Shown piece after piece: positions 4,557 to 12,508 of a stretch of DNA of 12,768 nt. The notes under the pieces were generated by a model, which saw only the letters and a list, made by a program, of their open reading frames with translations, made no database searches and was not told the origin of the DNA. Source of the DNA: Octopus sinensis (Eukaryota); assembly GCF_006345805.1 (NCBI RefSeq), contig NW_021827133.1, positions 1 to 12,768 of the forward strand. The letters are read 5' to 3'. Both the position numbers and the translations under genes were made by a program. The stretch's first letter is position 1. Each line of letters starts with the position of its first letter.

Positions 4557-5228
4557 TAAGTATATTTTTTTGTGCCATTACTTTCACAAAAGCCTTTTCA
4601 ATTTACGGTTCTATATTGATATATTTAAGTGTTTTTCCTTTCTCGCAAAATAAAACATAAATAAATATATAATTAAATAAAATAACAAAATCAAAAATAA
4701 ATACGTAACTTTTTTACATACAAGTGTTGAAACAGTGAAGATGTGTTCCTGAGAGAATCGATTTTGGTTATCATTTCCATAATTCATATTATCGTTTCTG
4801 TGACGCAAGCAGAGCTGAGCTGAGAAGCTTACCTTTGGAATTCTCTCACACACCTTTATGAATGTATAAATTAAATTAATTATTATAGATAAGGATGGAT
4901 ATATTTTTTTTAAGTTTGTACACCTTTAAAATATTAAATACTCTTTTATAAATAACGATTAACATTTTGGAATGGCATATAGTTATCAGCAGTTATACCA
5001 AACACCGTTTTATACATGATAAGCAGAAATAAATGAAAATAAATGTTATGTATGTGTGTAATTAATGTAAGTATATACAGGTATGAATTCATCACAAAGC
5101 GTATAGCAGGTATATGATTATATACACAGTTTTACGGAATAAGCTGGTACAATAAATAAGCATTTACAGTTAACACACAGAAAGCTATGAGGAACAGGTA
5201 GGTTCTTAAATATCTTAAATATATATAT

Positions 5229-5362
5229 GTCTTTCCTGATGAGAAGACGGAATAATGCACTCTTTATTCCTTCGGAATTAAGAATATGTAGTCTTCGAAA
5301 CATGTGTCGAGAATAAAGGAATTTTGTTAAATCGTCGTTCGACTCCATTCTTTCATTTATCT
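5229..5362 (+). mobile_element. Probable solo Penelope-like pseudo-LTR fragment carrying the hammerhead
   Basis: The hammerhead is followed immediately by AATAAA (5312-5317), and a diverged dispersed paralog lies at 8556-8685. Minimal type I hammerheads are an established feature of Penelope pLTRs. No linked ORF was seen and the boundaries are uncertain. Confidence 0.55.
5232..5312 (+). ncRNA. Type I hammerhead ribozyme motif with an intact core
   Basis: Stem I TTTC (5232-5235) pairs with GAGA (5309-5312). The core is CTGATGA (5236-5242). Stem II GAAGAC (5243-5248)/GTCTTC (5291-5296) encloses a GGAATAA/TTATTCC hairpin. GAAA is at 5297-5300, followed by a minimal stem III (ACA-TG-TGT) and the GUC triplet, giving a predicted cut after 5308. 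Confidence 0.82.
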
Positions 5363-5380
5363 ATATTATAGATATATGTA

Positions 5381-6184
5381 CAAAATCATCACCTTCAACA
5401 ATTTGGAAAGGTTCCTAAACTTGGAAAATGGGTGCCTCGTGAATTGTTCGAAAGCAACCGCAAATCCCGAGTTGGCATCTGCTCTTCTCGCCATTCTCGT
5501 GAACTCAATTCACCCTTTTTGGATAGATTTGTGACTGGTTACGAAATTGAATCTTCTGTCGAAATGTTAAACGTTGTAAACAGGGGCTTGGTAAAAGAGA
5601 AAAAGCTCAACCACAACGGAGAATGGAACTCAAGGCAAAAAGTTGCTTCTCTCTATCTGGTGGGATTGCAAATGAGTAATTCACTTTGAATTGTTATCAC
5701 CTAATGCGACAATCAATGCTCAAGTCTACTGTCACCAATTAGAGCGTTTGAACCAAGCTTTGAAGAAAAAAGACCCTCTTTAGTGAATCGAAAAGGAGTG
5801 ATGTTTCATCAGGAAGATGCGCGACTCCACACAGCAAAGATCACATCACAGAAGATCGAAGAGCTTCACTGGGAAAAAATTCCTCATCCACCTTCTGCTC
5901 TCGACCTTCCTCCTTCAGACTACCATTTGTTTCGTAGTTTACAGAATCATTTGGGGGACACACTTTCGCAAGCCAGGAGGTGGTCGAAACTGTCATTTCA
6001 GAGTTTTTCGCTTTGAAACCAAAAGAGTTTTACATTGATGGGATTAAAAAGCTTGTAAATAGATGGAAGGAAGTCATAGATAATCAGGGAAAGTACATTG
6101 ATGATTAATTTCAATTAAATATAACATTGGCTCACTTGTTTTCTAAATTCAAAATTGGGACAGAACTTATGGTATGATCTGATA
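5381..6184 (+). mobile_element. 5'-truncated, frameshifted mariner (Tc1/mariner DD34D) transposon with a transposase pseudogene and right TIR
   Basis: Motifs across frames: KLGKWVPREL (WVPHEL), FLDRFVTGYE (first D decayed), FHQEDARLH (HQDNARPH), HPPSALDLPPSDYHLF (YSPDLAPSDY), and the C-terminus GIKKLVNRWKEVIDNQGKYIDD* ending at 6108. A TIR-like GGACAGAACTTATGGTATGATCTGA followed by TA lies at ~6158-6184. Confidence 0.93.
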
Positions 6185-8084: not shown

Positions 8085-8555
8085 AAGAATTGACTCAGAA
8101 ATCTCAAAACGAACACATATACCCCAAAATACATTATTCATCATCGCACAAATAAACTTGTATAACATTTACATGGGGAAATATCAGCCGAGACCTACGC
8201 AATCTTTCTCTCAATCAAATACAATATAGAAAATTACATGTATTTCATACGACGTGTTATGAGCAAGATGCATATTGTTACAATGTGCTAGTTGTGTCGA
8301 TAGAATAAAATTCCATAATACCTACAATTTCGCATCAATATCTAATATATTTTTGCAATCGTTGTCTTTCCTGAGTCATTTAGTTTCTCTTAAATCGTGC
8401 ACGATATCATGGCCTATGTGAAATACCTGTTAAGCCTCGAGAAACCACTCCATACCATTGTATATATATTAAACAATATTAATAGCGTTCTGTCAATCGC
8501 TATACAAATCCATCATTTTTGCTAAAATGTCTTATTGACGAGTTTCGTTTTTTTC

Positions 8556-8641
8556 ACTTTCCTGGGGAGAAGATTGCATTGTTTATACCATTTATTCTTT
8601 TGAATAGTATCAGTGAAATTTTCGAAACATGTGTCGAAAGT
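8556..8641 (+). ncRNA. Type I hammerhead motif, paralog of 5232-5312, with an A6G core mutation (likely inactive)
   Basis: Stem I ACTTTC (8556-8561)/GAAAGT (8636-8641); core CTGGGGA (8562-8568); stem II GAAGATT (8569-8575)/AATTTTC (8617-8623); GAAA (8624-8627); CATGTGTC with a predicted site after 8635. Confidence 0.72.
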
Positions 8642-9002
8642 AAAAATATTTGATTACACCTGCGTTAAACTCCATTTATTTATTCATATATTATTCAAAA
8701 TATTCAACGTAAACACAAAGTTTCTACCTTTATAAACAAGTAGTTACAACACCTTTACTTGTGAGATTTTTGCTGCCCTGATAACTATTTATTTATTTTT
8801 TCCGTGTTAATTGTTAACAAGGTAAAAAAATACTCATCTTATATATATATATATATAATATACGTTTTTATTATTATTTTGCATTTTACTTAATCATCGG
8901 TATATTATTGTTATTTTAAATTTAATATTTCTATTATATGTAATTTTCTAGATGGTGTAATTTAATTGTTCATTTTGAATTAATAAAAGGTGTTTTTTTC
9001 TA

Positions 9003-9006
<4 letters not shown>

Positions 9007-9079: not shown

Positions 9080-9081
<2 letters not shown>

Positions 9082-9477
9082 GCAATCTAACTTTCACTGG
9101 ACGATGCCTCAGCATCAATTCCCATCTTCCGTCCGTACAGTATAAGGAGAGAGATTGCTCAGTGCCTTAAACATCGATCAATGACTAGAACTAGTGACCT
9201 TTATGCCCACCACAAAGAAAGGATCAAGCTAAGAAACAATCTACTATGCAACACTAGCCAGGACATACTATATCCTCCAATTAAGAAGAGAAGAGATGAT
9301 GACCCTTAAACTGACCACAGTCGTGTCTACACTATGTCAAAGGCCACTCCGAAAAGATACGAAAGTTATGCGGTTCATATTACATCAGGACAGTATTCAG
9401 AAATAATCTAACACTTCACAAATATCTCCTCCAAGTAAGACCACCCATAAAAGAGAATATGACCAAATACTGCGTGT

Positions 9478-9780
9478 TGTTTGTTCCTTCTCGAGCCATG
9501 CCTGGCTCATAAGGGCCGGTTTCCTGGTTTCTTGGCGTATAGGTTCCCCACTTTGACGGGACCCCGGTCCGTCGCAGGTGAGCTGCAAGATGCAGGAGGA
9601 AAGAGTGAGAGAAAGTTGTGGCGAAAGAATCAGCAGAAGTTTCGCCATTACCTTCTGCCGGAGCCGCGTGGAGCTTAGGTGTTTCGCTCATAAACACACA
9701 CATCGCCCCGTCTGAGATTCGAACCCGCGATCCCTCGACCGTGAGTTCGCTGCTCTAACCACTAGGCCATATGCCTCCAC
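9478..9780 (-). mobile_element. tRNA-derived SINE (family A-like head, different 3' half) inserted in the Penelope ORF, copy 1
   Basis: A-box TGGCCTAGTGG and B-box GGTTCGAATC on the minus strand. A decayed TSD reads CAAATACTGCGTGT (9464-9477)/CAAGCCTGCGTGT (9781-9793). Removing the insert rejoins ENMTK to CVYSIP. Confidence 0.9.
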
Positions 9781-10134
9781 CAAGCCTGCGTGTACTCCAT
9801 CCCATGGCGTTGCGGTAGGTTATACAAAGGTGAGACATGCCGTCCCCTTAGAGGAACATTGTAAGGCTGTGGCACGAGGGGATAGTGAAAAATCAGGTAT
9901 AGGTGATCATGTATGAAAAAAAGGGAGACCACCTCCCTTGTGGGATGAAATTAAAATAATAGACAGATAACACCGCTGGAAAATACGAAAATTAAAAGAG
10001 GCTCTGCATATGCTAGGACACAAGAACCTCCTAAGCAGACCTAGTGCAGATATGAATGTAATATGGGAACAAGTATTAAGAAAAGATAAAATATTAGGTT
10101 TATAAACCCCAAAATTCCCTCTCTTATTCCCTAC

Positions 10135-10205
10135 GGACATGCAGCGTAGCGGATAAGAGCATGCCCTGCTAACCCTCGGATGCTGAGTTCAATTTTAGTA
10201 GCGAC
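10135..10205 (+). promoter_or_regulatory. Degenerate tRNA-like Pol III A/B-box region in the Penelope 3' region (duplicated at ~11895-11966)
   Basis: GGACATGCAGCGTAGCGGATAAGAGC contains the A-box-like CAGCGTAGCGG (10142-10152). The B-box-like GAGTTCAATTT (10185-10195) lies at tRNA-like spacing. Confidence 0.5.
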
Positions 10206-10314
10206 TTGGGAAATAATTTATAACAAAATTAACATCAGCGGAAGAAGAATACCTTGGCAGGGAAAAAAGCGTACCACATTAGTTAAAAAAGGATTGGGTT
10301 CGAAATTCCACCAG

Positions 10315-10360
10315 AAAACTTGATGAAGTCTGGAGAGTACATCAGCAGAAACGTTGTGGT
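10315..10360 (+). ncRNA. Degenerate minimal hammerhead-like motif in the Penelope pLTR, copy 1
   Basis: TTGATGA (10320-10326, C3U), partial stem II CTGG/TCAG, and GAAA-CG-TT (10348-10355) with the palindromic ACGT stem III of dimer-type minimal hammerheads. Stem I pairs poorly. Confidence 0.55.
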
Positions 10361-10740
10361 AACAACAAACAAGATGAGGACAAAATATCCGTCAAATGTA
10401 AGTGATATATACATATGTATGTATATTCTATAAACTTATTCTTTTTTCACATAGCCATAATAAAATAACAGGTTCATTTCAATAGAGCCAATTTTACTCT
10501 TCTTATGTGTATACGTGTGTACAAGGCGATGTATGTATGTATACAGTGTGAGCGTCAGCATCACTCTAGCTATCTATCAATCTATTCACCTATCTATTAT
10601 CTATGTATTTTTCTTCTCTCTCTCTCTATCACTGTATATATATATATATATCTATACACATGTATGTATGTATGTATATATATATATATATGTAAATGTA
10701 TATATAATTTTATATGTATATAAATATATATATATATTTA

Positions 10741-10792
<52 letters not shown>

Positions 10793-10795
10793 TAA

Positions 10796-10836
<41 letters not shown>

Positions 10837-11235
10837 GCAATCTAACTTTCACTGGACGATGCCTCAGCATCAATTCCCATCTTCCGTCGTTACAGTATAA
10901 GGAGAGAGATTGCTCAGTGCCTAAACATCGATCAATGACTAGAACTAGTGACCTTTATGCCCACCACAAAGAAAGGATCAAGCTAAGAAACAATCTACTA
11001 TGCAACAACTAGCCAGGAAACATACTATCCTCTCCAATTAAGAAGAGAAGAGATGATGAAACCCTTAAACTGACCACAGTCTGTCTACACTATGTCAAAG
11101 GCCACTCCGAAAAGATACGAAAGTTATGCGGTTCATATTACATCAGGACAGTATTCAGAAATAATCTAACACTTCACAAATATCTCCTCCAAGTAAGACC
11201 ACCCATAAAAGAGAATATGACCAAATACTGCGTGT

Positions 11236-11546
11236 TGTTTGTTCCTTCTCGAGCCATGCCGGCTCATAAGGGCCGGTTTCCTGGTTTCTTGGCGTATAGG
11301 TTCCCCACTTGACGGGACCCCGGTCCGTCGCAGGTGAGCTGCAAGATGCAGGAGGAAAGGAGGAAGAAGAGTGAGAGAAAGTTGTGGCGAAAGAATCAGC
11401 AGAAGTTTCGCCATTACCTTCTGCCGGAGCCGCGTGGAGCTTAGGTGTTTCGCTCATAAACACACACATCGCCCCGTCTGAGATTCGAACCCGCGATCCC
11501 TCGACCGTGAGTTCGCTGCTCTAACCACTAGGCCATATGCCTCCAC
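11236..11546 (-). mobile_element. tRNA-derived SINE inside the Penelope remnant, copy 2
   Basis: Duplicate of 9478-9780 with the same decayed TSD (11222-11235 and 11547-11559). Confidence 0.9.
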
Positions 11547-12075
11547 CAAGCCTGCGTGTACTCCATCCCATGGCGTTGCGGTAGGTTATACAAAGGTGAG
11601 ACATGCCGTCCCTAGAGGAACATTGTAAGGCTGTGGCACGAGGGGATAGTGAAAAATCAGGTATAGGTGATCATGTATGAAAAAAAGGGAGACCACCTCC
11701 CCTGTGGGATGAAATTAAAATAAGACAGATAACACCGCTGGAAAATACGAAAATTAAAAGGGCTCTGCATATGCTAGGACACAAGAACCTCCTAAGCAGA
11801 CCTAGTGCAGATATGATGTAATATGGGAACAAGTATTAAGAAAAGATAAAATATTAGGTTTATAAACCCCAAAATTCCCTCTCTTATTCCCTACGGACAT
11901 GCAGCGTAGGCGGATAAGAGCATGCCCTGCTAACCCTCGGATGCTGAGTTCAATTTTAGTAGCGACTTGGGAAATAATTTATAACAAAATTAACATCAGC
12001 GGAAGAAGAATACCTTGGCAGGGAAAAAAGCGTACCACATTAGTTAAAAAAGGATTGGGTTCGAAATTCCACCAG

Positions 12076-12121
12076 AAAACTTGATGAAGTCTGGAGAGTA
12101 CATCAGCAGAAACGTTGTGGT
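12076..12121 (+). ncRNA. Degenerate minimal hammerhead-like motif in the Penelope pLTR, copy 2
   Basis: TTGATGA (12081-12087) ... GAAACGTT (12109-12116), identical to 10315-10360. Confidence 0.55.
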
Positions 12122-12508
12122 AACAACAAAACAAGATGAGGACAAATATCCGTCAAATGTAAGTGATATATACATATGTATGTATATTCTATAAACTTAT
12201 TCTTTTTTCACATAGCCATAATAAAATAACAGGTTCATTTCAATAGAGCCAATTTTACTCTTCTTATGTGTATACGTGTGTACAAGGCGATGTATGTATG
12301 TATACACGTGTGAGCGTCAGCATCACTCTAGCTATCTATCAATCTATTCACCTATCTATTTATCTATGTATTTTTCTCTCTCTCTCTCTCTCACTGTATA
12401 TATATATATATATCTATACACATGTATGTATGTATGTATATATATATATATATATGTAAATGTATATATATATTTATATATGTATATAAATATATATATA
12501 TATTTATA

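Follow-up and report, generated by a model that had tools for sequence, protein, structure and literature searches.

The role of the hammerhead ribozymes carried by Penelope-like elements (PLEs) is treated as an open question in the available parts of PMC8557442 and PMC11167929. According to the accessible text of Cervera and de la Pena 2014 (PMC4209133), the minimal PLE hammerheads belong to type I and have a G10.1-C11.1 pair, a helix II of 6-8 bp, a short helix I and a tiny palindromic helix III; they cleave as dimers (PMC4209133, PMC6765202), are slow in vitro (PMC4209133) and occur in inverted pairs 100-700 bp apart. In the Hydra clade, which includes Hydra-1_Obim (Craig et al. 2021, PMC8557442), a single frame holds the reverse transcriptase (RT) and, at its C terminus, a GIY-YIG endonuclease, with the motifs DKT and RW, no CCHH, CxxC and CxH flanking E and N, (TA)n targets and a type I hammerhead near the 3' end. 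In File S2 of that paper all 26 of 26 Hydra rows have a helix II of at most about 26 nt, and for Hydra-1_oBim we counted about 23 nt by eye. Larger sizes have a precedent in the Selaginella entries PLE-X1_sMoe and PLE-X1_sTam, whose loop 2 measures about 35 and 29 nt; these are, however, endonuclease-less plant elements of another clade, flagged in File S2 as deviating from the canonical structure and represented there by one consensus each, for which the available text gives neither covariation nor a bulge motif. In the part of PMC13725137 available to us, 'long helix II' means 6 bp. The available text of PMC11167929 reports that cleavage is dispensable for insertion in the sole PLE tested; for the Poseidon element PAc of Anolis (Frangieh et al. 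2024, PMC11167929) it describes uncut RNA as the insertion substrate and two fixed 3' ends (a tail) that are unrelated to the cut site.

The window analyzed here is the whole 12,768-nt Octopus sinensis contig NW_021827133.1, part of a 2.7-Gb genome and composed mostly of microsatellites and repeats. It contains a hammerhead-bearing element end (5228-5365, the window copy), and the family to which this belongs probably carries, in its 3' UTR, a PLE hammerhead with a paired helix II of 53-59 nt that is predicted to cleave only as a dimer, the long arm likely being a binding or docking handle rather than a catalytic part. It resembles the minimal PLE hammerheads in its type, the G10.1-C11.1 pair, the palindromic helix III and the occurrence of inverted pairs, but its helix II comprises 16-23 bp in segments, its helix I about 17 bp, and there is no extra base between positions 9 and 10.1. 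The features listed above for the Hydra clade are all shared, and the N-terminal and RT motifs resemble those of Hydra-1_Obim by eye, whereas helix II is roughly doubled in length and the CxCX5C linker and RWK of the clade are replaced by an asparagine-rich stretch and RWL. As in PAc there are two fixed 3' ends off the cut site; the octopus tail differs in spanning about 150 nt, and the hammerhead is part of the 3' UTR, where no long frame begins in it. Judged from sequence comparison, what is new is a structural variant of a known PLE hammerhead, widespread in one lineage and lying below standard detection thresholds, its size having the Selaginella precedent. We found no literature description of the family or of this architecture in cephalopods, although Lunse et al. 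2017 and Arkhipova et al. 2017 may show long helix II variants; the available text of bioRxiv 10.64898/2026.07.22.740005 mentions neither octopus nor helix II.

The type I hammerhead and its extended helix II

A preliminary description of the window had reported an intact type I core with a 6-bp stem II, a 4-bp stem I, a minimal stem III and a 42-nt loop II. All of these elements can be read in the sequence (Table 1), with CUGANGA, GAAA and UH in type I order between three helices.

Table 1. Features of the hammerhead-bearing element end and of a related copy in the window
Feature	Position	Strand	Remark
(TA)4 at 5' junction	5220-5227		family's usual target sequence
5'-truncated 3' end of Hydra-type Penelope-like element	5228-5365	+	starts 8 nt before core
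Helix I, proximal 5' strand UUUC	5232-5235	+	pairs with 5309-5312
Catalytic core CUGAUGA, intact	5236-5242	+	read from sequence
Helix II domain, 54 nt	5243-5296	+	6 bp, G.A mismatch, 5-bp segment, 7-nt 5' bulge, apical hairpin
Stem II, 6 bp	5243-5248/5291-5296	+	read from sequence
Loop II, 42 nt	5249-5290	+	read from sequence
Helix II 5-bp segment	5250-5254/5285-5289	+	two damaged positions in window copy: 5251, 5289
Helix II unpaired bulge, 7 nt, conserved letters	5255-5261	+	aligned copies
Helix II apical hairpin	5262-5270/5274-5282	+	family fold
GAAA core	5297-5300	+	read from sequence
GAAA core, stem III and C17 block	5297-5308	+	predicted cut after C5308
Stem III, 2 bp with 4-nt loop	5300-5307	+	read from sequence
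C17	5308	+	predicted cut position
Stem I 3' strand GAGA	5309-5312	+	read from sequence
Helix I 3' strand	5309-5328	+	5316-5328 orphaned
AAUAAA	5312-5317	+	read from sequence
Second, older copy of same lineage	8469-8862	+	93.7 bits

The folding energy of the region is unremarkable (z -0.2), and no hammerhead family appears among 119 Rfam matches over the whole window. When a 201-base stretch of a family copy was compared with the Rfam model Hammerhead_1 (RF00163), the core and the three-way junction aligned, but because of the 50-nt insertion the score came to only 20 bits, with the gathering score at 34, and standard annotation therefore misses the octopus motif. As the arm pushes the score below threshold, long-arm ribozymes may be undercounted in other animal genomes as well.

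Two further features of the preliminary description did not hold for the family. A GGAAUAA/UUAUUCC hairpin inside loop II can form in the window copy (pair probability about 0.54), but it is private to this copy: it requires a C-to-A change at 5251 that is absent in 46 of 46 near copies, and across 33 aligned copies it is 60% paired without covariation above shuffles. The AAUAAA behind the motif is present, but it lies in the helix I 3' strand and follows the cut site in only 11 of the 33; it is not a conserved feature or poly(A) signal. The extended helix II, by contrast, is real in its length, being a helix of the whole family instead of an insertion in one copy.

A putatively Hydra-derived carrier element

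A similarity search with window positions 5180-5380 returned 1,682 candidates, and most of the other copies among the 40 that were scored match at 92-98% from 5228 onward. The carrier is the 5'-truncated end of a high-copy PLE with a Hydra-type RT and a GIY-YIG endonuclease at the C terminus. Frames upstream of the hammerhead show GLYRDD, an RT motif, as well as SIYQC..FYVG, which is of GIY-YIG type, and in the eight copies measured their stop lies 207-628 nt upstream of the core. This assignment rests on the motifs and on homologues, many of them with PF26215, a Pfam scan of one fragment having named neither RT nor EN; the named protein homologues come from Octopus species with 49-71% local identity. 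Public databases annotate pieces of the retrotransposon protein (P0002, P0017, P0052) as host proteins, either 'GATA zinc finger domain-containing' or 'myb-like'. Of the PLE or retrozyme origin proposed earlier, only the first survives: non-LTR retrozymes consist of non-coding tandem units of a few hundred bases, whereas this family has a coding body, and since RT and endonuclease frames lie upstream it is an autonomous PLE lineage.

In 42 matches at 30 loci, the 3' ends fall at +124 to +131 (30) or +274 to +281 (12) from the core, and the terminus of the window copy (+129) is the short one. The 5' starts lie upstream of the core in 41 of the 42 and are scattered, with a cluster near -80, while 10 of the 30 loci contain an inverted partner copy. 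Truncation, inversion and an optional 3' tail together form the signature of PLEs in the available parts of PMC8557442 and PMC11167929. The cluster of 5' ends about 80 nt upstream of the core (L002-L030) coincides with a site containing ATTAT, and 15 of the 42 ends lie between -78 and -86.

Measured against the definition of the Hydra clade in PMC8557442, the translations show DKT in place of DKG (SDKT in L147, L148, L152, L153, L156, L159 and L160, some of these loci overlapping), lack CCHH and have CxxC and CxH around conserved E and N; insertion is into (TA)n. The RWK motif reads RWL (RIRWL in L150, L156 and L161). The CxCX5C linker is absent in the frame before the endonuclease motif in 55 rows from the octopus genome, which include overlapping loci and one false hit, and four CxC flags among them all fall in broken or foreign sequence; an asparagine-rich stretch takes its place. 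Because the linker is missing, we file the lineage, placed by its motifs, as putatively Hydra-derived and not as a typical member of the clade. The Neptune clade, our initial guess, was dropped against the definitions in the available text of PMC8557442. The copies with the asparagine-rich linker still target (TA)n (L035, L038, L047), a preference that the same text ties to the cysteine motif.

Older subfamilies with 55-75% protein identity have kept the long arm. In two families that are more distantly related, a Hydra-like endonuclease of 29-37% identity lies close by, on the opposite strand in one (L082) and directly upstream in the other (L119). A 612-codon frame at L161:4904-6739 is of another PLE type and has cysteine motifs both ahead of the endonuclease and inside it.

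Family fold and compensatory changes

For the structural analysis 33 natural copies were chosen out of 134 extracted so as to span the subfamilies. Full copies retain the 5' strand that the window copy has lost, and in their helix I an internal loop separates 4 bp from about 13 further pairs; their helix II of 53-59 nt is interrupted in the manner given in Table 1. Over the family structure 87.5% of cells are paired; double-change cells number 53, whereas shuffles give 19.7 and slid controls no more than 25. The number of pairs with a double change is 12 against 9.1 in shuffles (25 of 500 shuffles), and further pair types do not exceed shuffles in this alignment. Note that the shuffle test overstates significance, as the aligned copies are related and were picked to span subfamilies. 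The proximal pairs of helix I are paired in 96% of cells with 5 double changes, and the first 11 pairs of helix II in 93.7%, five of these pairs having double changes. The apical hairpin is less well supported: its upper 5 bp are without double change and its lower 3 bp only 72.5% paired. At the level of sequence, these compensatory changes show pairing of the long helices.

Within the 7-nt bulge, U and A are invariant in 33 of 33 aligned copies, and the next two C are kept in 30 and 26. No conserved extra helix between the arms was found in the 33 copies by a test to which non-canonical contacts between loop I and loop II are invisible. A coding overlap running through the arm was discarded, the frames seen there being short.

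Long and short arms in the genome and beyond

Three mutually exclusive patterns, two for CTGATGA subfamilies and one for CTGAAGA, gave 979, 927 and 1,028 matches in the genome against 0, 0 and 7 in reversed controls (sequence detail being taken from the first 100 matches listed of each). The core thus lies beyond chance, and the genome holds about 2,900 long-helix-II matches in total; a fourth long-arm pattern (147 matches) overlaps in part with the others. Few short-arm versions share this core and loop type: there are 41 matches, which resemble scattered deletions and by eye are mostly deletion derivatives, with no amplified short-arm subfamily among them. A looser short-arm pattern yielded 1,055 matches against 76 in the control, and among the 100 matches listed 75 represent a single canonical motif that frequently recurs at about 350 bases; the genome therefore carries ordinary short hammerheads too. 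This motif, with the loop CTCGAG, is abundant in tandem units of about 353 bases, for example at G000:C1:148255725-148257169. We label it retrozyme-like.

In several sequence-distinct families the helix II domain measures 44-62 nt, and loop III is a different palindrome in each (CATATG, CACGTG, CAATTG, CAGCTG, CGTACG, CGCGCG, CTGCAG and CGATCG; one copy each). The 14 arms tested have folding z-scores between -6.3 and 0.0, two families being weak (-1.5 and 0.0), and the arm sequences are unrelated between families. At 20 loci of the other long-arm families, three probes detected no Hydra or other PLE frame upstream of the hammerhead; one of these loci (L173) has an unrelated Hydra endonuclease on the opposite strand. 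Tandem units also occur in these families, and a 401-base unit at L177:855-1657, each with a 44-nt long-arm hammerhead and the loop CTGCAG, is likely a non-autonomous element with the same architecture.

For an outside comparison we drew on metagenomes, taking 77 Hydra-type loci out of the best 80 among 335 confirmed; 71 of the 77 have the CxCX5C linker. They were searched with a scanner that allowed a helix II of up to 95 nt and gave 0 hits in reversed controls. It located 55 hammerheads in 45 of the 77 loci, and in 43 of 43 distinct motifs helix II has 10-25 nt, whereas for 108 of 113 distinct motifs of the octopus genome, from loci pre-chosen for long arms, this scanner gave 42-77 nt. As the arms are short both in these outside motifs and in the published table, the long arm appears to be derived in the octopus lineage. 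The Naiad 'half-core' cases were considered as possible long-arm hammerheads and set aside, since in the available material Naiad_Ovul, the one complete case, has GAAAC before CUGAUGA.

Predicted dimer cleavage and the possible role of the long arm

In a monomer, stem III has a computed probability of at most 0.01, while the 8-bp self-duplex of loop III amounts to -7.0 kcal/mol. As families each carry their own palindromic loop III, cleavage as dimers is indicated, and the earlier assignment to the dimer type was in our judgment right. Two transcript copies would pair through the 8-nt palindrome and thereby build stem III, and the cut would fall after C17 within the dimer; computed pairing and the published PLE hammerheads suggest that this would probably be slow.

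What the long helix II contributes is a separate question. A function as a folding clamp was rejected, for natural short-arm copies pay no more for the active fold than full ones: it costs 2.3-3.8 kcal/mol in five of seven of the former and 2.4-5.5 kcal/mol in seven of eight of the latter, the exception (L059, 10.8) being on a par with the window copy. The arm is thus not needed for the secondary fold. Trimming off distal helix I, in comparison, adds 2.6-4.2 kcal/mol in six of eight copies. The steady arm length and the conserved letters of the bulge suggest a handle, and we tentatively propose, with rather less confidence than for the architecture itself, that selection may keep the long helix and its bulge for binding by the element's protein or for tertiary docking on the long helix I.

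A less probable though serious alternative is that the arm is tolerated baggage, an old AU-rich hairpin expansion that could persist because dimer-type hammerheads need no contact between loop I and loop II, its pairing being kept only to spare the core. The equally good folding of short-arm copies would agree with this, as would the unrelated arm sequences of different families, the Hydra relatives elsewhere that function with 10-25 nt, and the strong drift expected, by inference, if few master copies are active. Against it stand the narrow length range over many families, the invariant letters of the bulge and the lack of an amplified short-arm form among the 41 matches. Taken together, the evidence suggests that the handle is favoured over baggage. 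A more specific scenario, in which the Hydra-derived octopus lineage lost its cysteine linker and gained the roughly 55-nt helix II domain as a recognition handle for its protein, with the palindromes keeping dimers within the family, seems doubtful to us in this complete form. Thousands of copies in nested subfamilies supply natural compensatory changes, short-arm deletions and several palindromes, and through this variation dimer dependence, family-specific pairing and the role of the peripheral domain become directly testable.

Fate of the window copy and origin of the genomic copies

The preliminary description had regarded the window copy as possibly still active, cutting any plus-strand transcript after 5308 beside a poly(A) signal. 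With its core, 6-bp stem II and 4-bp stem I intact, and with a second copy of the lineage on the same strand 3.3 kb downstream whose identical loop III makes it a possible partner, this would be conceivable, but we consider it unlikely. The copy begins inside helix I and has lost half of it, the truncation having removed the distal 5' strand and left 5316-5328 without a partner. It differs from near copies at 5251, 5261 and 5289, two of these changes striking the second segment of helix II. The active fold has a computed cost of 8.9-9.4 kcal/mol, about 9 where most full copies stay within the range given above, and the pair probability is 0 for proximal helix I and 0.36 for stem II. Its loop III is a near-palindrome, ACAUGUGU, where the commonest form in the family is ACAUAUGU; the self-duplex is weakened to -6.0 kcal/mol and has an equally stable shifted register. 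The scarcity of AAUAAA in the aligned copies also speaks against such a reading. To cut at all, the copy would likely require a partner, and it is probably an impaired, dead-on-arrival fragment, predicted to cleave poorly if at all. By itself the single window copy is of little importance.

It is very unlikely that self-cleavage sets the 5' end of the RNA copied into the genome. Among 13 matches with a purine at position 17, eight are copies starting at the cut site, but a control two bases upstream gave a similar result (6 among 22 distinct matches listed, of 23), and 1,152 matches keep GUC intact across the site. Genomic 5' ends show no peak at the cut site, which fits uncut RNA as template in line with the available part of PMC11167929; the genomic copies likely derive from such RNA.

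Hardly to be expected at all is a switch or pseudoknot between the CCUUUAUUC segment of the arm and that part of the helix I 3' strand which immediately follows the cut site. A perfect 9-bp complement exists in the window's subfamily, but the reading was rejected for lack of covariation: there is a single double-change cell where shuffles give 1.3, one of the pairs is broken in 17 of 33 copies, and the complement is not evident in the other families.

Neighbouring sequence in the window

In the second, older copy the hammerhead occupies about 8529-8666, and the invariant core A6 is changed to G (8565). The core at 5236 might in principle act on the cut site of this copy in a read-through transcript. 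The adjoining stretch 8854-9005 is a 3' fragment (about 90% identity) of a second long-arm family, without hammerhead and ending in (TA)37. Directly after the element, 5372-6108 holds a broken transposase remnant with no Pfam hit, presumably mariner-like by its motifs. Positions 9080-12400 hold a tandem duplication of near-identical sequence that repeats about every 1,760 bases, with (TA)n in between; it is either a real repeat or an assembly artefact.
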